In this document: positions 3,103 through 56,113 of the stretch, piece after piece
Position numbering within the stretch: position 1 is the stretch's first letter
How the letters are laid out: every line of letters begins with the position of its first letter
Assembly: GCA_023245355.1 (NCBI GenBank)
Contig: JAHFKN010000006.1
Span: 454-64,453 of the forward strand
Length of the DNA: 64,000 nt
From: Candidatus Gottesmanbacteria bacterium
GTDB lineage: Bacteria > Patescibacteriota > Microgenomatia > UBA10105 > UBA927
Direction: 5' to 3'
The notes under the pieces: generated by a model
The model's database searches: none
Told to the model about the DNA's origin: nothing
The model's input: the letters and a program-made list of their open reading frames with translations, nothing else
Translations under genes and position numbers: made by a program

Positions 3103-3820
3103 CGTGTTTCCCCCCTTTGGCAACCGGCTTTGCGTGTTTATCCAGATGATAATGCCCCTTCGCTTCATCGCGGACAATCGCCCCCTGATGAATGGTCAGC
3201 GTCCGCTTTTTCATTTTATTTACGATATCCGCATTGTGACTAGCGATGATAACCGTCGTTCCCAAATCATTCACTTCTTTTAAAATATCCATGATGCCCC
3301 ACGCGGTTTCCGGATCCAGATTGCCCGTCGGCTCGTCAGCAAGCAGAATTTTGGGACCTCCCACAATCGCGCGCGCAATGCTTGTCCGCTGCATTTCCCC
3401 GGCGGAAAGCTGCAGAGGAAACAGATTCCTCTTATCAGCCAATCCGACAAGTTCCAGCACGTTCATGACTCCCTGTTCTATATCGCGCTCCGGCTTGCCC
3501 AAAATCTCGAGCACCATAGCGATATTTTCAAACACCGTGCGGTCCAACAGCAGTTTGAAGTCCTGAAAAACAATGCCGACTTTTCTCCGCAGTAAATGGA
3601 TATTGCCTCCGTTGAACTTGCTGATATCCCCGCTATCGACCGTGATCGTGCCTTTTGACGGAACGAGGTCGCGGATAAGGAGACGGAGAAATGTCGTTTT
3701 GCCGCTCCCGGAAGGACCGATAAGAAACACAAATTCGCCTGCCGGTATTTCTACGGTTACATCAATCAGACCGGGAATTTTCCCCGGATAATATTTGGAG
3801 ACATTATTGAAGGTAATCAT
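3089..3820 (-). CDS. ftsE: Cell division ATP-binding protein FtsE
   Basis: Walker A motif GPSGSGKTT, the ABC signature LSAGEMQR, and Walker [13 protein letters not shown]. FtsE-type length and synteny with ftsX. Confidence 0.85.
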   Translation of the reverse strand: MITFNNVSKYYPGKIPGLIDVTVEIPAGEFVFLIGPSGSGKTTFLRLLIRDLVPSKGTITVDSGDISKFNGGNIHLLRRKVGIVFQDFKLLLDRTVFENIAMVLEILGKPERDIEQGVMNVLELVGLADKRNLFPLQLSAGEMQRTSIARAIVGGPKILLADEPTGNLDPETAWGIMDILKEVNDLGTTVIIASHNADIVNKMKKRTLTIHQGAIVRDEAKGHYHLDKHAKPVAKGGKHDANH

Positions 3821-22981: not shown

Positions 22982-24193
22982 ATGCAATTGTCTGCTATGA
23001 AATTATCAGAACACAACGAGAAAATATTTTATATCTCCGAATTCTTTAACGGGCTCATTTTCCACATGCCCGTGTGGGTTGCGTTTGAACTCCAGTATCT
23101 GACTCTTGCGCAAATCGCAATCATAGAAGCCATACTCCAGGCGTCGCAGCTGCTAAGCGAACTGCCGACCGGGGCGGTAGCGGACTTGTTGGGCAAGCGT
23201 GCCTCCGTCATCATCGGCCGGCTTATCGGCGTTGTCGCGCTCCTTATGTACGCGTCCTCCGGTACGTTTACCGGATTTATCATATACGCCATCGTGGCAG
23301 GATTTGGGGATTCGTTCGTATCGGGGGCCAAAGATGCGCTGCTGTACGATTCGTTAAAGCACGACCATCGTGAAGGCCATTACCAAAAAGTCATGTCCAA
23401 AGTATCGCTTATATTCCAGCTGTCGTTTGCGGGAGCAATTCTGGCAGGAGGAGTGTTAAGTTTGTGGGGCTATACGGCGGCTATCTATGCGACTGCCATC
23501 GCCTATGCTTTCGCGCTCATGTTGAGCTTCTGGTTTCAGGAGCCTCCCCTGGATACCGAAAAATTTACGCTGCCCCGGTATCTGCGGCAATTCAAAGAAG
23601 GATTCCGTGAACTGTTTAAATCCCCCTATGTTCGGGACATATCGCTTTTTTATATCGGCGTCGGAGGTGTCACCTGGTCTGCGATGATGATCTACAACAC
23701 ATCGCTTCTTACGACCATCGGGTACACGGCGTTCCAGATAGGCATAATCGTTGCCGTTATCAGGCTTCTAAACAGCGGTGTACTCTTCGGCGCGCTGCAT
23801 CTTAAAACCATCATCACCAAACGGCGCGCGTATCTTTTGTTTCCCGTCATCATGATTCTCTGTTATCTGCCAGGCGCATTACTCACCAAAGAACTCGCCG
23901 TCCTTGCGGTAGCAGGATCCATATTCGCATCCAGCGCACGCTGGGTGATTTTGGGAAGCTACGTCAACGAGCACTACGAATCGAAAAACAGGGCAACCGC
24001 ACTTTCTACATTATCCATGCTGGTATCTCTTGCCGTGGTAGGATTTGCACTCATCTCCAGTCCGGTTATGCAGCTGTTCGGAGGAGTAAAAGCGATGTTT
24101 ACGCTTCTGGGTATCGTATCGGCACTCCTGGTGCTTCCGCTCGGACTCCGGATCCGTACGCGCTATCATGCAAAAGCCGTCAGCGCGAAATAA
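22982..24193 (+). CDS. MFS transporter
   Basis: 12-TM hydropathy profile and an MFS-like GxLaDrxGkR loop (VADLLGKRAS). Confidence 0.75.
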   Translation: MQLSAMKLSEHNEKIFYISEFFNGLIFHMPVWVAFELQYLTLAQIAIIEAILQASQLLSELPTGAVADLLGKRASVIIGRLIGVVALLMYASSGTFTGFIIYAIVAGFGDSFVSGAKDALLYDSLKHDHREGHYQKVMSKVSLIFQLSFAGAILAGGVLSLWGYTAAIYATAIAYAFALMLSFWFQEPPLDTEKFTLPRYLRQFKEGFRELFKSPYVRDISLFYIGVGGVTWSAMMIYNTSLLTTIGYTAFQIGIIVAVIRLLNSGVLFGALHLKTIITKRRAYLLFPVIMILCYLPGALLTKELAVLAVAGSIFASSARWVILGSYVNEHYESKNRATALSTLSMLVSLAVVGFALISSPVMQLFGGVKAMFTLLGIVSALLVLPLGLRIRTRYHAKAVSAK

Positions 24194-25424
24194 CGTTCTT
24201 CCCCATCAGCGGCCGGAGCACATCAGGAATCAAAATCGTGCCGTCTGCCTGCTGGTAATTTTCCAGAATCGCAACCAGTATCCGCGGACTGGCTACCGCC
24301 GTGTTGTTCAGCGTGTGGCAAAACTTCACCGCTCCGTCTTTTGCTTTGTACCGGAGTTTAAGCCGGCGCGCCTGAAAATCCCCCATGAACGAATCGGACA
24401 TGGTCTCTCCGTAAGCATTCCGGCCCGGCATCCAGGTTTCGATATCGTATTTTTTCACCTGCGGCTCTCCCATATCGCCGGTACACATAAGCAGCACCCG
24501 GTACGGAAGTTTGAGGTCCTGCAAAATACCCTCTGAATTCGCCAACAACTCCTCATGTAGAGTAAGAGAATTGTTCGTTTCCGCAGTTGAGATAATTACT
24601 TGTTCAATCTTATTGAATTGGTGCAGCCGGTAAACCCCTCTCGTATCTTTGCCGTAACTTCCCGCTTCCCGGCGGAAACACGGGGAAAACGCGACAAACT
24701 TTTTCGGCAGATCTTTTTCCGAAAGCATCTCGTCACTGTAGTATGCCGTCACCGGAACTTCTGCCGTACCCGACAGATACACGTCATCTTTGGGCAACGC
24801 GTATACTTCTTCCCTGCCCCACGGAAATTGCCCGACGCCGAAAAACGCAAATTCTTTGGCTAAACTCGGCGCGATAAGCGGCGTATAGCCTTTGCCCGAC
24901 AGTTTCATGAGCGTATAGAACATGAGGGCGACCTCAAGCTGAGCTGCTTCGTTTTTCAGAAAATACGCGCGCGATCCGCCGACTTTGGCACCCCGTTCAA
25001 AGTCGATAAGATCCAGGCTCTTTGCCAGATCAATATGATCTTTGGGAGCAAAATCAAATTTTGTAGGTTCTCCCCATTTTTTCACCTCGACGTTCCCTGT
25101 CTCATCTTTGCCTACCGGCACACTTGCATCCGGCACATTCGGAATAGTAAGCATAGCCGCCGCAAATTGTTCTTCTGCCTGACGGAGATTCTCATCAATA
25201 GCTTTCAGTTCATCTTTGATCGCTTTCCCACGGGCGACACCCTCATCCGTACGGGTACGGCTGACTTCGTTTCGCTCCGCCCGGAGCACTTCTGCTTTGC
25301 CGATAAGTTCCCGCCGTTTTTCATCGAGTGTAAGCAGCGCGTCCCAGTCGACCACGCGGTTTTTGTTTACAGCTGCTTGTTTACACAACTCCAGATTTTC
25401 CCGAATAAATTTAATATCTAACAT
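24180..25424 (-). CDS. serS: Seryl-tRNA synthetase
   Basis: N-terminal coiled-coil arm (MLDIKFIRENLE) and class II motifs (FRRE, GTAVASPRILVAILEN). Confidence 0.95.
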   Translation of the reverse strand: MLDIKFIRENLELCKQAAVNKNRVVDWDALLTLDEKRRELIGKAEVLRAERNEVSRTRTDEGVARGKAIKDELKAIDENLRQAEEQFAAAMLTIPNVPDASVPVGKDETGNVEVKKWGEPTKFDFAPKDHIDLAKSLDLIDFERGAKVGGSRAYFLKNEAAQLEVALMFYTLMKLSGKGYTPLIAPSLAKEFAFFGVGQFPWGREEVYALPKDDVYLSGTAEVPVTAYYSDEMLSEKDLPKKFVAFSPCFRREAGSYGKDTRGVYRLHQFNKIEQVIISTAETNNSLTLHEELLANSEGILQDLKLPYRVLLMCTGDMGEPQVKKYDIETWMPGRNAYGETMSDSFMGDFQARRLKLRYKAKDGAVKFCHTLNNTAVASPRILVAILENYQQADGTILIPDVLRPLMGKNVISR

Positions 25425-25439
25425 GAGTTTAGAATACGG

Positions 25440-26087
25440 CTAAAGTGCATGGTTTGCAAGGTTAGCCTGTAAGCCCTCCAAATGATTTGTATTATTTACT
25501 TCACTCACTTTTACTGCTCCGTCGGTTATGTTCAGCTTCGTAATGGCTGCAGGTTGCAGCTCCATATTCCAGAGCATATCCTGCTCTATACCCAACATAT
25601 CGGTAAGCAGCGCACGGACAATATTATCATGGGTTACGACCGCCGTGGTTCCGCGAATTGTCGGCAGCAGTTCTTTCCACCACCGCAATGCACGTTCCCG
25701 CGTTTCCGCGTACGTTTCTCCACCAGGAAAAGCGGCTTTCGACGGCTGTGTTTGCCACGTGCGGTATTCCTCCGGCCATAGCTTCGCAATCACATGAACG
25801 TTTTTTCCTTCCCACGCTCCGTGATTTGTCTCGATAATGTCCGGATCTATTTCTACCGTCAGTCCGTCGTGCCATTTGGCGATAGCGTCTGCCGTATCAC
25901 GCGTGCGCTTCAGGGGACTTGCGATGATGCGGTCAATCGGTTTTTCCGCAAGAAAAGCTCCAAGTGCGTTCACTTGTTTTTCTCCCAGCGCCGACAGCTT
26001 GGTATCATAGGTTTGTCCCTGATATATTCCCTGCGTATTGGCCACGGATTCCCCGTGCCTGATAAGATACACAACGTTTTCGACCAT
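25440..26087 (-). CDS. Histidine phosphatase family protein (phosphoglycerate mutase-like); candidate phosphoserine phosphatase
   Basis: RHGES catalytic motif (VYLIRHGESVANTQG). The start is ATG at 26087, preceded by a GGAGGTG RBS. It is co-transcribed with serS behind a T-box-like leader. Confidence 0.75.
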   Translation of the reverse strand: MVENVVYLIRHGESVANTQGIYQGQTYDTKLSALGEKQVNALGAFLAEKPIDRIIASPLKRTRDTADAIAKWHDGLTVEIDPDIIETNHGAWEGKNVHVIAKLWPEEYRTWQTQPSKAAFPGGETYAETRERALRWWKELLPTIRGTTAVVTHDNIVRALLTDMLGIEQDMLWNMELQPAAITKLNITDGAVKVSEVNNTNHLEGLQANLANHAL

Positions 26088-26300
26088 AAAAAAACACCTC
26101 CTTTCTTTTGAAAAGACGAGGTGTTCTCGTGGTGCCACTTTTCTTTGTTATATTGTTGCCAATATAATCTTTTGTACTTCTCCGCCATTGTGACGACAAA
26201 GTACGTATTCTGTAACGGGAATTCCCGTACTGCCTTCGATACTCCTGATGTAGTACTTTCGGTAGTCGGCTTTACCGAGGGAAAGTTCGGTATATAACGC
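26088..26300 (-). promoter_or_regulatory. T-box riboswitch-like leader with an antiterminator and an intrinsic terminator that masks the RBS
   Basis: On the minus strand the leader reads AAAAG-UGGCACC-ACGAG-AACAC-CUCGU-CUUUU. This is the canonical helix A1 / 7-nt UGGNACC bulge / helix A2 antiterminator, with N=C complementary to a G73 discriminator. It overlaps a terminator (AACACCUC ... GAGGUGUU followed by UUUUUAUG). About 170 nt of structured leader lie upstream. Confidence 0.55.
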
Positions 26301-26341
26301 CTTTATTTATTTGTTAACTCCCGTATTGTACGCAAATGGTT

Positions 26342-26959
26342 TTAGCGTGTCAACATCGCCTGCAATGCCGGGATGATTTTTTCTACCGCTTTTTTGCGGT
26401 GATTGTACGCTTCGTTCTCTTCTTTGGTCATCGCGCTCTGGTCGTAGTATTTATTGAGTTCCGGGATAAACAGGATGGCCCGGTACGGAAACCCCGGCTG
26501 ATGCGCTGCTGCGGGTTCAGGGGCGACGATACCGCGGATTTTTTCTTCCGACGTGGCAACCAGCGACCCATTGGAATCGACGAGAGATAACACAAGATGC
26601 AGTTGGGCGCCGCGTTTGTCTTCCGGGATTCCCTGCATCCGTTTAAATGTGTATGCAATCAGTTCCTCATCGGTATTTTCCCGGTCTCCGTATACCCAGC
26701 GGTGGGATTTGACCCCCGGCTCCCCACCCAGCGCGTCGATTTCAAACCCGCCGTCGTCGGCAAGCGTCGGCAATCCGGATTTCTTTGCGTAATACGCGGC
26801 TTTGAGAATCGCGTTCTCCTCGAACGTCTTCCCGGTTTCCTCGACCGTATCCGTGATACCGGCATCGGAAAGGCTGACCAATTCAATCGGGATACCTGAG
26901 AGAAATTCACGGAGTTCAGAGAGTTTCCCGGGGTTCGTGGTTGCGATAAGAAGTTTCAT
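26342..26959 (-). CDS. rdgB: Non-canonical purine NTP pyrophosphatase (RdgB/HAM1, ITPase)
   Basis: N-terminal motif MKLLIATTNPGKLSE and HAM1-family length. Confidence 0.85.
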   Translation of the reverse strand: MKLLIATTNPGKLSELREFLSGIPIELVSLSDAGITDTVEETGKTFEENAILKAAYYAKKSGLPTLADDGGFEIDALGGEPGVKSHRWVYGDRENTDEELIAYTFKRMQGIPEDKRGAQLHLVLSLVDSNGSLVATSEEKIRGIVAPEPAAAHQPGFPYRAILFIPELNKYYDQSAMTKEENEAYNHRKKAVEKIIPALQAMLTR

Positions 26960-27525
26960 TACAGTCCGATCTCTTCATGATGCGCCTGCATGGCAGTAAG
27001 CGTAAGCGCGATAAATTCAGCAAGCGGGATACGGAGTTTTTCCTCGCATTGGGCAATCTGACCACGCTCAACCGCTGCGGCAAATGCTTTCTGGTTCCAT
27101 TTTTTCATCACCGCCTCGGGAGTTACTGCCGCAAGCGACTTTTCCGGACGGACCAATGCGACAGCGACGATAAATCCCGTCAGTTCATCGACCGTCTCCA
27201 GCGCCCACTCCATGTCTCCATCAAGCTCTGCAAGCTTCGTGCGTTTCCTATTATGAGACATGAGTGCATGCACTACCGGTCCTTCTGTCTCCCCCATATC
27301 TTTGAGCCAGGAAAGCGAATGTTTCGTATGCTCATCCGGCGTGTCTTTGGTTTCTTCCCAGTCCGCATCATGGAGTAACCCCAGCGTTTCCCATGTATCA
27401 GGATCCCCGCCGAGTTTAGAAGCGAGAGCCCGCATGGCAAATCCTACGGCATACATATGCCGCCGGAGATTCTGGTTTTTGGTGTGCGCGTGGAGTAAAT
27501 CAGTCGCTTGCTGTTTCGTGATCAT
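26959..27525 (-). CDS. HD domain phosphohydrolase
   Basis: H...HD motif (LLHDADWEE) and a YfbR-like size. Overlaps neighbouring genes in an operon. Confidence 0.6.
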   Translation of the reverse strand: MITKQQATDLLHAHTKNQNLRRHMYAVGFAMRALASKLGGDPDTWETLGLLHDADWEETKDTPDEHTKHSLSWLKDMGETEGPVVHALMSHNRKRTKLAELDGDMEWALETVDELTGFIVAVALVRPEKSLAAVTPEAVMKKWNQKAFAAAVERGQIAQCEEKLRIPLAEFIALTLTAMQAHHEEIGL

Positions 27526-29885
27526 GCCGCGACTCCTTGAAATTCAAGCGTGCCGCCGCAGTATTTCATAATCACTTCCACTGATTCCTGTAAGGACTGT
27601 TCTACTGCTGCAGGAGTTATGTCATACACGCCGTCGACATTTATCCAGATATTTTTGGTTTGTTCCGTTACCATAGTGCGTTTGGCATCGCGGAAATTAA
27701 AGTCTATGTTGTATCCGCCGTTCTGATCATAGTAGGCGATTTCTTTTGCCGTGTATTTGGTTGGCGTGGTATCCCCCAAAAGCAGTATCTCGTCTCCCTC
27801 ACCTGCAAACCGCAGCACGGTCGGGAACGCGACGTTATCGGCATCAAACGCGCCGACGGAAATGCGGTGCTTCATGACAACCAGGTTATATGCATCCACA
27901 CAGGTATTTACCGAGTAGAGTTCTTTCCCCACGGCAATACGCCGAAGCAGCGCTTCCGGCGACGGCCGGCGTGAATGCCAGTCTATCCCCATTTCTTTGT
28001 ACAGTTTCCGGTAACTGATAAGTTCCGGATACGTGCCGAGTTTTTCGGTCGTAAGCCCGGCAAGTGTCGATAGGAATTCCTGTTTTTCTTTTTCCAGACC
28101 AGGATCCGTTTTAGTAATCGTCACTCCTTTGATCAGCGCGACTCCTACGGAAATACTCGGAATACTTTTTTTGAGTTTCGGATCTATGAGGATATACTCC
28201 GGTTTCGCGATAACGGAAACGCCTTGCGCTATGTCAGGCACCGCCTCTTTCGTATTGAGCGTCAGCCGCTCTACTACAGCATCCACCGGGAACTGTTTGA
28301 GCAGCCATCCTGCTCTGGGACCGTGTTCTTTGTCCAACACGACCAGATACAGCGCTTTGAATGCGGACCGAAGGTCAATCCCCTGGGATTTAGCCAGTAC
28401 AAAAAGTTCAGACTGCATTTTTTCCGGGTCGTCCACACGCTGCCAAATAGTTGCTAACGCATTCAGAAATAACCACTGCTCTTTGGTAAAGGTATATTCC
28501 TGTTTGGATTTTGTGGAAATCCGGTACCGGTATTCGTCCGGCGCATAGGTGTCTAACCAGACGCGTGCATACTTCCCGCGGTTTTCCAACACGGCTTTTT
28601 CCTCTTTGGTCAGTGCGGAACCTTTTATCGCACTGAATTTGGAAACCAAATCCACATTTGGAAGCTGCATGAAGTTGGCGACATCCCGGAAACGAGGCAC
28701 AAACATGGCTTTTTTGTCCGGAATATCCTGAATCTGTGACAACTCAAACGCCCGTGCCAGGCCCTCGTCTGACCCGTCTATGAACGCCTGCCAGCACCGG
28801 TCGTATTCGTCGAACAGATCCGGGATAGCCATGGTACCCATCGGGTCAAACTCGATAGCCTGACGGTAATCGGTCCGGGTAAACAAAAATCTGCCGACTT
28901 CCGCAGGCAACAGGGATGTAAGGTCGCGTCCTTTGAGTCCCAACCCTTTGGACGAGGACATTTTCTTCCCGCCGATCAGGAAAAACTCATACGGGAGGTT
29001 ATAGGGATTGTCGATATGGAACACGTCTTTGCACAGTTCTTTGGCAATATCCCGCGAGCCACCTGCGGACGAATGGTCTTTACCCGCTCCCTCTATGGTG
29101 ACACCCAGCACTTTCCAGTGTGCCGGCCAGTCCACTTTCCACGGAAGTTTGCCCGGGTGATGCTTGCTGTCGTTAGGATCCGTAAACGGACTCGTTTTTC
29201 CTGTGTATCCGCACCCCCGCGCCCAGGTAACCATATCAGGTTCGCAGGTGTACTCTACCATTGTTCCATCCCACCCGTGTACCCTCGTGGTTCCCAGTCT
29301 GCCGCATTTTTCGCAGATAACCTGCAAAGGTAGCCAGCCTTTGTCGCGTTTTTTGCTGCCGCTTACCCGCTGATAGATATCCTGTATGCGTGTAGCATTA
29401 TCCAGCGCTTCGCGGATGACGCCGTCGAATAGGCCCTTATGATACATATCCCAGGAAGAACGGAATTCTGCCCGCACTCCCAAACTTACCAATACGCTTT
29501 GGAAATCTTTGGTAAAGTACTCGGCAAAACTTGTAAACCCGGGCTCAGGCGATTTGGCCAGGCGCAGCGGTTTGCCCAGCTCATCTTTCATGCGTGAGAG
29601 TTCCGGCGGCAGTCCGTCTACCGGGTCGAAATCGTTGAAAATGTACGTGAATGTCGCTTTCACCCCGGCATCGACCAGCGACCGGTACGCCAGGTCATGC
29701 ACGAGCGGCCCGCGGAGCGAACCGATATGCGCAAACCCGGACGGGGTAAACATGTCGTCCACCCAATACGGCTTGTGACTTCCTGATGCAATTATTTCGT
29801 GAGCGATCCTGTCTGACCAGAACATAGGTATATTATAACGAAAAACCCCGCTTGTGGCGGGGTTCATTTTTTCCTTCTTCTCCAA
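27522..29885 (-). CDS. lysK: Class I lysyl-tRNA synthetase with a C-terminal B3/4-like (PheT editing-domain-like) extension
   Basis: Class I HIGH-like motif (FAHIGSLRG) and KMSKS motif (KMSSSKG), in LysK-like order. About 257 extra C-terminal residues resemble the B3/4 domain (SVNTCVDAYNLVV..ISVGAFDAD..RFAGEGDEI..YYDQNGGYN). Confidence 0.8.
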   Translation of the reverse strand: MEKKEKMNPATSGVFRYNIPMFWSDRIAHEIIASGSHKPYWVDDMFTPSGFAHIGSLRGPLVHDLAYRSLVDAGVKATFTYIFNDFDPVDGLPPELSRMKDELGKPLRLAKSPEPGFTSFAEYFTKDFQSVLVSLGVRAEFRSSWDMYHKGLFDGVIREALDNATRIQDIYQRVSGSKKRDKGWLPLQVICEKCGRLGTTRVHGWDGTMVEYTCEPDMVTWARGCGYTGKTSPFTDPNDSKHHPGKLPWKVDWPAHWKVLGVTIEGAGKDHSSAGGSRDIAKELCKDVFHIDNPYNLPYEFFLIGGKKMSSSKGLGLKGRDLTSLLPAEVGRFLFTRTDYRQAIEFDPMGTMAIPDLFDEYDRCWQAFIDGSDEGLARAFELSQIQDIPDKKAMFVPRFRDVANFMQLPNVDLVSKFSAIKGSALTKEEKAVLENRGKYARVWLDTYAPDEYRYRISTKSKQEYTFTKEQWLFLNALATIWQRVDDPEKMQSELFVLAKSQGIDLRSAFKALYLVVLDKEHGPRAGWLLKQFPVDAVVERLTLNTKEAVPDIAQGVSVIAKPEYILIDPKLKKSIPSISVGVALIKGVTITKTDPGLEKEKQEFLSTLAGLTTEKLGTYPELISYRKLYKEMGIDWHSRRPSPEALLRRIAVGKELYSVNTCVDAYNLVVMKHRISVGAFDADNVAFPTVLRFAGEGDEILLLGDTTPTKYTAKEIAYYDQNGGYNIDFNFRDAKRTMVTEQTKNIWINVDGVYDITPAAVEQSLQESVEVIMKYCGGTLEFQGVAA

Positions 29886-29888
29886 GCA

Positions 29889-30350
29889 TTATTCAATGCT
29901 CAGGATTTTGTAGAGGATTTTGCCCGCCGGAGCTTCTACCTCTACCTTTTCTCCCACCTTCTTACCGAGCAATGCTTTGCCAAGCGGTGATTCATGGGAG
30001 ATTTTTTTACTGGCGGGATCTGCTTCCCACTCTCCGACCACGGTAAATTCTTCTTTTTTGCCGTTTATGTGGAGCGTGACTTTGCAGCCGACGTCGACCT
30101 GGCCTTTGGCGTGGGTTGTGACGACTTTTACGTCGTGAAGCACGACTTCCAGCTCGGCGATTCTGCCATCGATAAACGACAGGCTCTGTTTGGCATCGGT
30201 ATATTCGCTGTTTTCCGACAAATCACCCTGATCACGGGCGGTTGCAAGGCGGGTCACAGCCTCCGGGCGCTTTACGTTTACGAGTTCTTCGTATTCGGCT
30301 TTCAGCGCGTCCAGACCTTCTTTTGTGACGACTACATGATTGATTGTCAT
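29889..30350 (-). CDS. greA: Transcription elongation factor GreA
   Basis: N-terminal coiled coil with the acidic tip (DLSENSEY) and a C-terminal FKBP-like domain. Confidence 0.9.
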   Translation of the reverse strand: MTINHVVVTKEGLDALKAEYEELVNVKRPEAVTRLATARDQGDLSENSEYTDAKQSLSFIDGRIAELEVVLHDVKVVTTHAKGQVDVGCKVTLHINGKKEEFTVVGEWEADPASKKISHESPLGKALLGKKVGEKVEVEAPAGKILYKILSIE

Positions 30351-32047: not shown

Positions 32048-32053
32048 TACGTG

Positions 32054-32127
32054 TACCCCGTGCCGGATTCGAACCGGCGATCTATACCTTGAGAAGGTAT
32101 CGTCCTAGGCCGCTAGACGAACGGGGC
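32054..32127 (-). tRNA. tRNA-Glu (anticodon CUC)
   Basis: Cloverleaf derived by hand: GCCCCGU acceptor stem, UCUAGCGGCCUAGGAC D-arm as in bacterial tRNA-Glu, anticodon stem AUACC/GGUAU with loop UUCUCAA, and T-arm GCCGG-UUCGAAU-CCGGC. 74 nt; CCA is not encoded. Confidence 0.8.
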
Positions 32128-55926: not shown

Positions 55927-55997
55927 TGCGGGATCGTATAACGGTAGTACGCATCCCTCTGGAGGATGTTATCTTGGTTCGAATCCAAGTCCCGCAG
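55927..55997 (+). tRNA. tRNA-Gln (anticodon CUG)
   Basis: Hand-folded: U1-A72 acceptor (UGCGGGA/UCCCGCA), 3-bp D-stem GUA/UAC with a GG loop, anticodon stem CAUCC/GGAUG with loop CUCUGGA, T-arm CUUGG-UUCGAAU-CCAAG, discriminator G. CCA is not encoded. An 11-bp inverted repeat flanks it (55916-55926 / 55997-56007). Confidence 0.75.
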
Positions 55998-56113
55998 CAG
56001 TGTTGATAAGCACGAACAAACATCCAAATCCCGCAGCATATACAAAATTTGTCCGCCGGAATTTTTTTCGCGCAAACGCCGACAGCATCGAATACTGGTA
56101 CAATAGCCTCATC

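Follow-up and report, generated by a model that had tools for sequence, protein, structure and literature searches.

The 64,000-nucleotide stretch analyzed here (the window; Candidatus Gottesmanbacteria bacterium, contig JAHFKN010000006.1) encodes on its reverse strand a class I lysyl-tRNA synthetase (LysRS) that continues, within the same open reading frame (ORF), into a C-terminal B3/4 module of the type represented by the aminoacyl-tRNA deacylase CtdA. We propose that the tethered module enables this LysRS to edit mischarged tRNA-Lys after transfer, a reading to which we assign a probability of roughly 55%. Proofreading is favored by the conservation of the predicted aminoacyl pocket of the module and by the pattern of synthetases to which such modules are fused. 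The sequences and models show the architecture, the fold, the constraint on the pocket and the association with both LysRS classes; what we infer is that the module hydrolyzes, that it acts on tRNA-Lys and which amino acid it rejects. On this reading, synthetases believed to be without an editing domain would have acquired a known deacylase fold as a putative one. Residues are numbered according to the mechanically called ORF, in which the ATG at 29825 is Met21, and the coordinates of all features are collected in Table 1.

By its N-terminal body, the fusion protein is recognizable as a bona fide class I LysRS. This body matched the class I LysRS profile of Pfam (PF01921) over residues 22–384 (E 3.7e-78; 263.4 bits vs. 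a cut-off of 27) and the NCBIfam equivalog TIGR00467 (lysS_arch) over residues 21–542 (324.9 bits vs. a cut-off of 147.55), and it was colinear in sequence with residues 3–521 of the 523 residues of P. horikoshii LysRS-I (1irx; E 6.3e-56). Across 25 homologues, H53 of the HIGH-type signature HIGS was nearly invariant, while G55 and S56 were invariant, as were K308, M309 and S312 of the KMSKS-type signature KMSSS. When the full structural model was searched with Foldseek, 1irx was the top match (E 1.8e-36; template modeling (TM) score 0.75, target-normalized), followed by CtdA structures and then by the beta subunit of phenylalanyl-tRNA synthetase (PheRS beta). A first-pass annotation made from the sequence alone had described a LysK-type core with HIGS and KMSSS motifs, ending near residue 530 and fused to a C-terminal B3/4 domain. 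The core and its fusion were confirmed by Pfam, NCBIfam and Foldseek, but the boundary had to be moved to residue 543 ('VVERLTL'), which is the exact endpoint of the P. horikoshii enzyme. Presumably, this is the housekeeping LysRS gene; within the 64-kb window, we found no second B3/4 domain, no class II LysRS gene and no arginyl-tRNA synthetase (ArgRS) gene. The only tRNA genes of the window were those for tRNA-Glu(CTC) (32053–32127, −) and tRNA-Gln(CTG) (55927–55998, +), and no tRNA-Lys gene was found within it.

Between body and module lies a variable linker, where conservation is lowest in the protein (mean pairwise identity 0.20, zero invariant columns). An AlphaFold2 model of the 767-residue protein, based on a 97-sequence alignment, had a mean predicted local distance difference test score (pLDDT) of 90.5 and a predicted TM score (pTM) of 0.66, with pLDDT values below 50 at model residues 527–535, within the linker. 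The protein is thus modeled as two confident bodies on a flexible tether, without a predicted fixed orientation. When the C-terminal 227 residues were modeled alone, pLDDT reached 95.3 and pTM 0.91. In line with the B3/4 homology proposed by the first-pass annotation, the Pfam B3_4 profile scored 74.7 bits against a gathering cut-off of 29.3, with profile positions 2–173 of 174 covered. That annotation had also likened the domain to PheRS beta's editing domain, and here the outcome was different: the PheRS-beta type was displaced as the closest relative by the CtdA type, both on sequence and on fold. In Foldseek searches, the module matched CtdA structures best (9f7e_A: E 1.3e-17, TM 0.82/0.81, 230 columns of 231 residues; 9mkl: TM 0.80), with TM values of only ~0.6 for PheRS beta editing domains, and CtdA likewise came ahead of PheRS beta when solved structures were searched by sequence. 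Further, the profile for PheT, TIGR00472, scored 16.7 bits against a cut-off of 402.65, confined to the B3/4 stretch, which does not qualify the protein as a PheT. The module also has the CtdA-specific helical insert, beyond the mere Pfam core. Residues 540–787 served as query for an exhaustive HMMER search in 1.84 billion representative proteins, which retrieved 1911 relatives, many of them free-standing proteins of 220–240 residues that aligned end to end with residues ~565–786. Judged by sequence and model, the appended piece is a whole CtdA-type protein.

The joining of both parts in one gene was corroborated at several levels. In agreement with the first-pass annotation, which had the ORF running on past the LysRS core, the mechanical ORF (27522..29885, −; 787 codons) contained no stop or frameshift between the LysRS portion and the C-terminal portion, and the motifs quoted there (HIGS, KMSSS, SVNTCVDAYNLVV, ISVGAFDAD, RFAGEGDEILLLGDT and YYDQNGGYN) were all found in place. 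LysRS and module also stood in a single ORF at 56 of 57 related GTDB loci, which come from many independent assemblies, the remaining locus being truncated by a contig end; more than 120 database proteins of 760–770 residues share the architecture. A frameshift, a missed stop or a chimeric assembly uniting two genes is ruled out on these grounds as a source of the fusion, and we give that explanation practically no weight. Nothing was found in its favor, apart from one related locus (L054) with an in-frame TAA inside the module. At that locus, the TAA (3772–3774) lies in a gene for a class II LysRS fused to the module, the local sequence appears shifted, and the stop may be a sequencing error or mark a decaying copy.

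The aminoacyl pocket of CtdA is formed by N105, G116, E118, C166, Q173 and I189, and the enzyme is inactivated by N105A, G116H/W and Q173G (PMC12449066). Its specificity is tuned by the residue at position 166, Q173E is a naturally occurring active variant, and N105 is the sole residue in common with the PheRS editing site (N254). The helical insert sets CtdA apart from the PheRS domain, inserts and topology being different (PMC12449066). We mapped these positions onto the module by two independent alignments (HMMER and MAFFT), which gave the pocket signature N-G-F-N-D-N, so that two of the six CtdA residues (Asn and Gly) are kept and the four that face the side chain are replaced. Strict membership of the CtdA family, i.e., canavanine editing, was rejected for this reason and because the module is not free-standing. 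All six pocket positions were invariant in 97 of 97 fusion proteins, which are 54–94% identical overall, and also in 56 complete modules from GTDB species representatives. Only 32 of the 223 module columns were invariant, and the six pocket positions were all among them (hypergeometric P 5.7e-6). Mean pairwise identity amounted to 0.67 for the module, 0.66 for the catalytic domain and 0.43 for the anticodon-binding region. Since the pocket is invariant and the module matches the catalytic domain in conservation, the pattern is, as far as sequences can tell, that of a working substrate pocket rather than of a passive appendage.

This pattern bears on an alternative in which the module is a catalytically silent tRNA-binding domain that helps the class I LysRS to recruit or hold tRNA-Lys, similar to Trbp111/EMAP-type domains. 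Such a role would be consistent with the binding of the tRNA acceptor end by B3/4 domains, with a conserved basic motif common to CtdA and the module (WHSRRPSPEALLRR; R640, R648 and R649 invariant or nearly so), and with the fact that four of the six pocket residues are unlike those of both characterized hydrolases. However, invariance is found at the positions lining the pocket, including the Asn and Gly essential in CtdA, and not on the surface alone. As described below, the type of pocket also changes with the amino acid that the partner synthetase handles (Lys vs. Arg), which a generic clamp would not need, one relative (P0141) has a separate tRNA_bind domain besides the module, and a free-standing version with the same pocket exists. 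We therefore regard a silent tRNA-binding role as unlikely.

With regard to distribution, the best 120 database homologues all combined PF01921 with PF03483 in 760–770 residues, were named only 'lysine--tRNA ligase', and came from Gottesmanbacteria, Levyibacteria or the 'Patescibacteria group'. A scan of one genome per GTDB species yielded 57 loci carrying the module, and those with informative names all belonged to Microgenomates-type Patescibacteria (Gottesman-, Levyi-, Woese-, Davies- and Roizmanbacteria). Class I LysRS fusions at greater distance were found in Gracilibacteria and Chloroflexota (Anaerolineae, Aggregatilineales). Many records with typical Microgenomates gene and synteny bear titles such as 'uncultured Gammaproteobacteria', 'Lysobacterales', 'Methylomirabilota' or 'Vitreimonas' (L003, L008, L009, L013, L015, L017, L020, L022, L023, L026, L048 and others); the probable causes are placeholder or erroneous taxonomy in the source records, or mis-binning of contigs.

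Fusion partners were classified for the best 150 of the 1911 relatives. Approximately 100 of these representatives were free-standing, 26 were class I LysRS fusions (fragments included), 17 were fused to a class II LysRS (15 with the module C-terminal, 2 with it N-terminal), and 6 to ArgRS, with the module N-terminal in all. The ten class II partners tested (P0127, P0134, P0136, P0138, P0141, P0143, P0145, P0146, P0148 and P0149) all passed the curated NCBIfam cut-offs for lysine--tRNA ligases; one of them, P0136, stems from a metagenome-assembled genome of Promethearchaeota (Asgard). Further partners were seen in P0141, which carries tRNA_bind (PF01588) and HD domains and whose order of tRNA_bind followed by B3/4 echoes PheT, and in P0138, where a DUF2000 domain matched a hypothetical protein (PDB 2gax) marginally; this fold may resemble that of peptidyl-tRNA hydrolase 2.

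Among LysRS fusions, those of class I and class II nearest to the window module had the N-G-F-N-D-N pocket in common. By neighbor-joining, the window module fell into a clade of 23 members (87% bootstrap) in which 15 modules are fused to class I LysRS, 6 to class II LysRS and 2 are unfused. This contrasted with the ArgRS-fused modules (P0192, P0213 with two copies, P0223, P0229, P0233 and P0251, the latter at locus L060), which have retained the pocket of CtdA (N, G, E, C, E, V/I) and which we group with CtdA by pocket signature, not by tree. Given N-G-F-N-D-N in the LysRS clade vs. N-G-E-C-E-V/I in the ArgRS fusions, the pocket type tracks, at the level of these signatures, the amino acid of the partner synthetase. 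The N-terminal B3/4 of ArgRS is accordingly a putative built-in canavanyl-tRNA-Arg editing domain; no description of an ArgRS–B3/4 fusion was found in the literature searched. A single monophyletic superclade of 'LysRS-associated' modules was considered but not supported, with a neighbor-joining bootstrap of 11% for the 51-member group.

These data also address the proposal that the module is a trans-acting deacylase for another tRNA, e.g., canavanyl-tRNA-Arg, and is fused to LysRS for co-expression or stability only. CtdA proteins are indeed its nearest solved relatives, and the long disordered linker would let the module act on any tRNA. Nevertheless, just two of the six CtdA pocket residues are kept, with C166 and Q173, residues of specificity and activity, now being Asn and Asp, and where a fused module does have the pocket of CtdA, as in the ArgRS fusions, the partner is not LysRS. 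Moreover, N-G-F-N-D-N has been fused independently to both LysRS classes and has survived a class swap, which points to tRNA-Lys or lysine. We consider this proposal quite improbable.

The class swap was seen at five of the 57 GTDB loci (L050, L051, L053, L054 and L056), where the module is joined to a class II LysRS. Four of these (L050, L051, L053 and L054) lie in a neighborhood of the class I type, with greA upstream and, as far as the contig allows, HD and serS genes downstream; the contig of L056 is too short to show flanks. A comparison of the window protein with that of L050 showed 57% identity, free of gaps, over the last 221 residues, whereas the first ~550 share nothing, and the similarity begins immediately past the linker. 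As two kinds of LysRS thus occupy the same neighborhood with similarity confined to the module, the sequences indicate that the synthetase body was exchanged in situ between class I and class II while the module stayed. Retention of the module across this exchange would therefore tie its function to lysine or tRNA-Lys and not to the enzyme scaffold.

Taken together, the editing reading is favored because the fold of the module is that of a proven aminoacyl-tRNA deacylase, because 21 of the 23 modules of the supported clade are fused to LysRS and all have N-G-F-N-D-N, and because a relative, P0141, has with tRNA_bind an extra partner that is itself tRNA-related. Several points weigh against it. 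In four of the six pocket residues, the module departs from both characterized relatives, and the chemistry, besides the specificity, could therefore differ as well. The mutual placement of the two active sites lacks a confident prediction (pTM 0.66, linker pLDDT <50). In the module tree, the deeper nodes are unsupported and only the 23-member clade holds. Other LysRS-fused subclades differ in their pocket, where position 726 is C or T and position 749 is I or V. Finally, the free-standing P0128 (229 residues; L058, 6001–6690) is 58% identical to the window module and has the same N-G-F-N-D-N pocket, from which it follows that fusion is not required for function; its neighbors encode a DsbD-like protein, an FAD oxidoreductase and an acetyltransferase, with no LysRS nearby, so that a trans-acting counterpart of like specificity type would exist. 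CtdA-like pockets with C at 726 and E at 733 were observed in three class II LysRS proteins, P0212 and P0197 with an N-terminal and P0245 with a C-terminal module. By their predicted pockets, LysRS-fused modules are not all of one specificity type.

Class I LysRS requires tRNA for amino acid activation (PMC9283866), and the editing known for LysRS is pre-transfer only and takes place in the synthetic site (PMC6103669); since this is so, a separate post-transfer site would be a plausible gain in fidelity. ArgRS, for its part, is absent from the ten enzymes credited with any editing activity (PMC6103669). In the mechanism that we propose, the LysRS body would charge tRNA-Lys and sometimes transfer a lysine-like non-cognate amino acid. 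The tethered module would then capture the aminoacylated CCA end before the tRNA leaves or right after its release, in cis or in 'tethered trans', and would hydrolyze its ester bond in a pocket with the conserved Asn667/Gly678 pair as framework. Phe680, Asn726, Asp733 and Asn749 may admit the side chain of the near-cognate and exclude lysine. Candidate substrates are cationic near-cognates or natural lysine antimetabolites, such as analogues of the thialysine or oxalysine type, arginine or ornithine.

The fusion gene belongs to a run of genes with translation and 'house-cleaning' functions that recurs over Microgenomates loci and that, in the window, comprises greA, lysK-B3/4, an HD-domain gene, a gene for a Ham1-type protein, a histidine phosphatase gene and serS. 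The ATG of the HD gene overlaps the TGA of the fusion gene (ATGA). Of the 57 loci, 20 have an HD gene downstream of the fusion gene, which is directly adjacent or overlapping in around 15 of them; besides the window, it was observed in L002, L003, L005–L007, L009, L015, L016, L037, L040, L048, L050–L052 and L054. In-frame fusions of HD occur in L037, P0071 (LysRS1-B3/4-HD) and P0141 (LysRS2-tRNA_bind-B3/4-HD). A profile of 15 HD orthologues gave weak matches to YqeK-type symmetrical hydrolases of diadenosine tetraphosphate (Ap4A) (8jja, E 7e-4; 2ogi, E 2e-3), which span just 37–49 residues round the HD motif; all other hits of the HD protein were generic HD/HDIG ones. LysRS is a classic source of Ap4A. 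An Ap4A-clearing partnership of the HD protein is a lead and not an assignment.

This association could speak for a function other than editing, such as regulated deacylation of Lys-tRNA-Lys, the passing of its lysyl group to a different acceptor, or joint action with the HD hydrolase, possibly Ap4A-related. Translational coupling, the fused forms and the YqeK-type matches would all suit such a role, and LysRS fusions with non-editing functions do exist (LysX, among the NCBIfam models). On the other hand, no feature of the module suggests a transferase, hydrolytic editing domains have the fold of the module and the Asn/Gly framework that it retains, and the HD gene follows in 20 of the 57 loci only, while the module is always present. 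To us, a non-editing function has a slim chance of being correct.

Regarding the 5' end of the gene, translation very probably starts at the ATG at 29825, as all homologues begin with MFW(A/S)D and the 60 nucleotides upstream hold the terminator hairpin of greA and a TATAAT box. The hairpin falls into the 20 codons with which the mechanical ORF spuriously begins, and the TATAAT box was read from the sequence, since the consensus promoter scan did not report it upstream of lysK, there being no match to a −35 element. No Shine–Dalgarno sequence was visible ahead of the lysK ATG (29823–29865, −). These features suggest a leaderless or near-leaderless transcript.

Table 1. Position of the fusion gene, its domains, predicted pocket residues and neighboring features in the window.
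Feature	Coordinates	Strand	Remarks
lysK-B3/4 fusion gene	27522..29825	−	767 residues; ATG 29825, TGA 27522–27524
Class I LysRS body, residues 21–543	28257..29825	−	Rossmann catalytic domain and helical anticodon-binding domain
HIGH-type signature HIGS, residues 53–56	29718..29729	−	From the translation
KMSKS-type signature KMSSS, residues 308–312	28950..28964	−	From the translation
Variable interdomain linker, residues 544–564, NTKEAVPDIAQGVSVIAKPEY	28194..28256	−	From conservation and model
CtdA-type B3/4 module, residues 565–787 (223 residues)	27525..28193	−	From module-only model, Foldseek and free-standing homologues
Pfam B3_4 (PF03483) match, residues 625–776	27558..28013	−	E 8.7e-21, 74.7 bits
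Asn667	27885..27887	−	CtdA N105, E. coli PheT N254; Asn of both editing families, essential in CtdA
Gly678	27852..27854	−	CtdA G116, PheT H265
Phe680	27846..27848	−	CtdA E118, PheT F267
Asn726	27708..27710	−	CtdA specificity residue C166, PheT A312
Asp733	27687..27689	−	CtdA Q173, PheT G318
Asn749	27639..27641	−	CtdA I189, PheT E334
TATAAT box	29832..29837	−	Read from the sequence; ends 6 nt ahead of the lysK ATG
greA intrinsic-terminator-like hairpin	29843..29865	−	From scan; 9 stem pairs, 6 of them G-C, then T-rich tail
Gene run greA, lysK-B3/4, HD, Ham1-type, histidine phosphatase, serS	24180–30350	−	
HD/HDIG-domain gene	26959..27525	−	188 residues; PF01966, TIGR00277
Ham1-type non-canonical NTP pyrophosphatase	26342–26959	−	
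Histidine phosphatase	25440–26138	−	
serS	24180–25424	−	

The first-pass annotation had called the arrangement uncharacterized, and we found no description of it: in the literature searched, CtdA papers included and most subscription journals lying outside its coverage, a B3/4 domain joined to LysRS or ArgRS was nowhere mentioned. In the AARS Online table of domains present in at least two aminoacyl-tRNA synthetase families, B3/4 is not listed for LysRS-I, LysRS-II or ArgRS, and the editing-domain superfamilies given there are Edit-LIV and Edit-AT only. The architecture is visible in public databases, where both Pfam domains are annotated automatically, but appears to be uncharacterized and undiscussed. 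A deacylase paper (Nat Chem 2026) was set aside as a precedent, as it deals with AlaX-type enzymes and not with B3/4.

More broadly, we advance, with somewhat less than even confidence, the view that dedicated modules for post-transfer editing are part of LysRS of both classes and of ArgRS in many uncultivated lineages (Patescibacteria, Chloroflexota, Asgard archaea), and that the conserved unit in Microgenomates is not the synthetase but an accessory cassette of the B3/4 deacylase and sometimes HD, given that the change between class I and class II affected the catalytic body, with cassette and neighborhood left in place. If true, three synthetase families would be added to the seven credited with post-transfer editing sites, and the fidelity of both cationic amino acids would be actively policed post-transfer in much of the uncultivated tree. 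A further implication would be an environmental problem of lysine antimetabolites, parallel to that of canavanine for arginine, and, for the biology of the candidate phyla radiation, the view suggests scavenging symbionts that meet toxic lysine-like compounds. The pocket signature would be swappable (N-G-F-N-D-N vs. N-G-E-C-Q/E-I in CtdA), two unrelated LysRS folds bearing the same module would constitute a natural experiment, and the modules would be candidate proofreading tools against lysine analogues for synthetic biology.

In comparison with known systems, the window protein shares a colinear body and both the HIGH and KMSKS signatures with P. horikoshii class I LysRS, but the canonical enzyme ends where the linker starts and is without an editing or B3/4 domain. 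To our knowledge, the B3/4 domain of PheRS beta is the sole B3/4 editing domain previously recognized inside an aminoacyl-tRNA synthetase; that of E. coli PheT edits in cis and hydrolyzes Tyr- and m-Tyr-tRNA-Phe. The module has PF03483 in common with this B3/B4 region (3pco/6oz5) and keeps the equivalents of N254 and F267, whereas H265, A312, G318 and E334 are replaced by G, N, D and N, the fold is less similar (TM ~0.6), and the PheRS domain is embedded among B1, B2 and B5 while the module is C-terminal on a disordered linker.

With CtdA (9f7e, 9mkl; PMC10018355, PMC12449066), the module shares the fold over its whole length, the helical insert, the Asn and Gly required for activity (N105 and G116, here N667 and G678) and an S-x-EAL-x-RR motif. 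It differs from CtdA, which is free-standing and belongs to the arginine system, in its fusion to LysRS, in an overall identity of ~17–19%, and in the exchanges E118 to F, C166 to N, Q173 to D and I189 to N. The same logic of one deacylase fold that is found both free-standing and within several synthetases applies to AlaX and the editing domain of AlaRS and ThrRS (PMC11580382), and the INS domain of ProRS with ProXp/YbaK is likewise known in free-standing and fused form, although the fold and the synthetases of the AlaX-type and INS/YbaK systems differ from those of the module described here.

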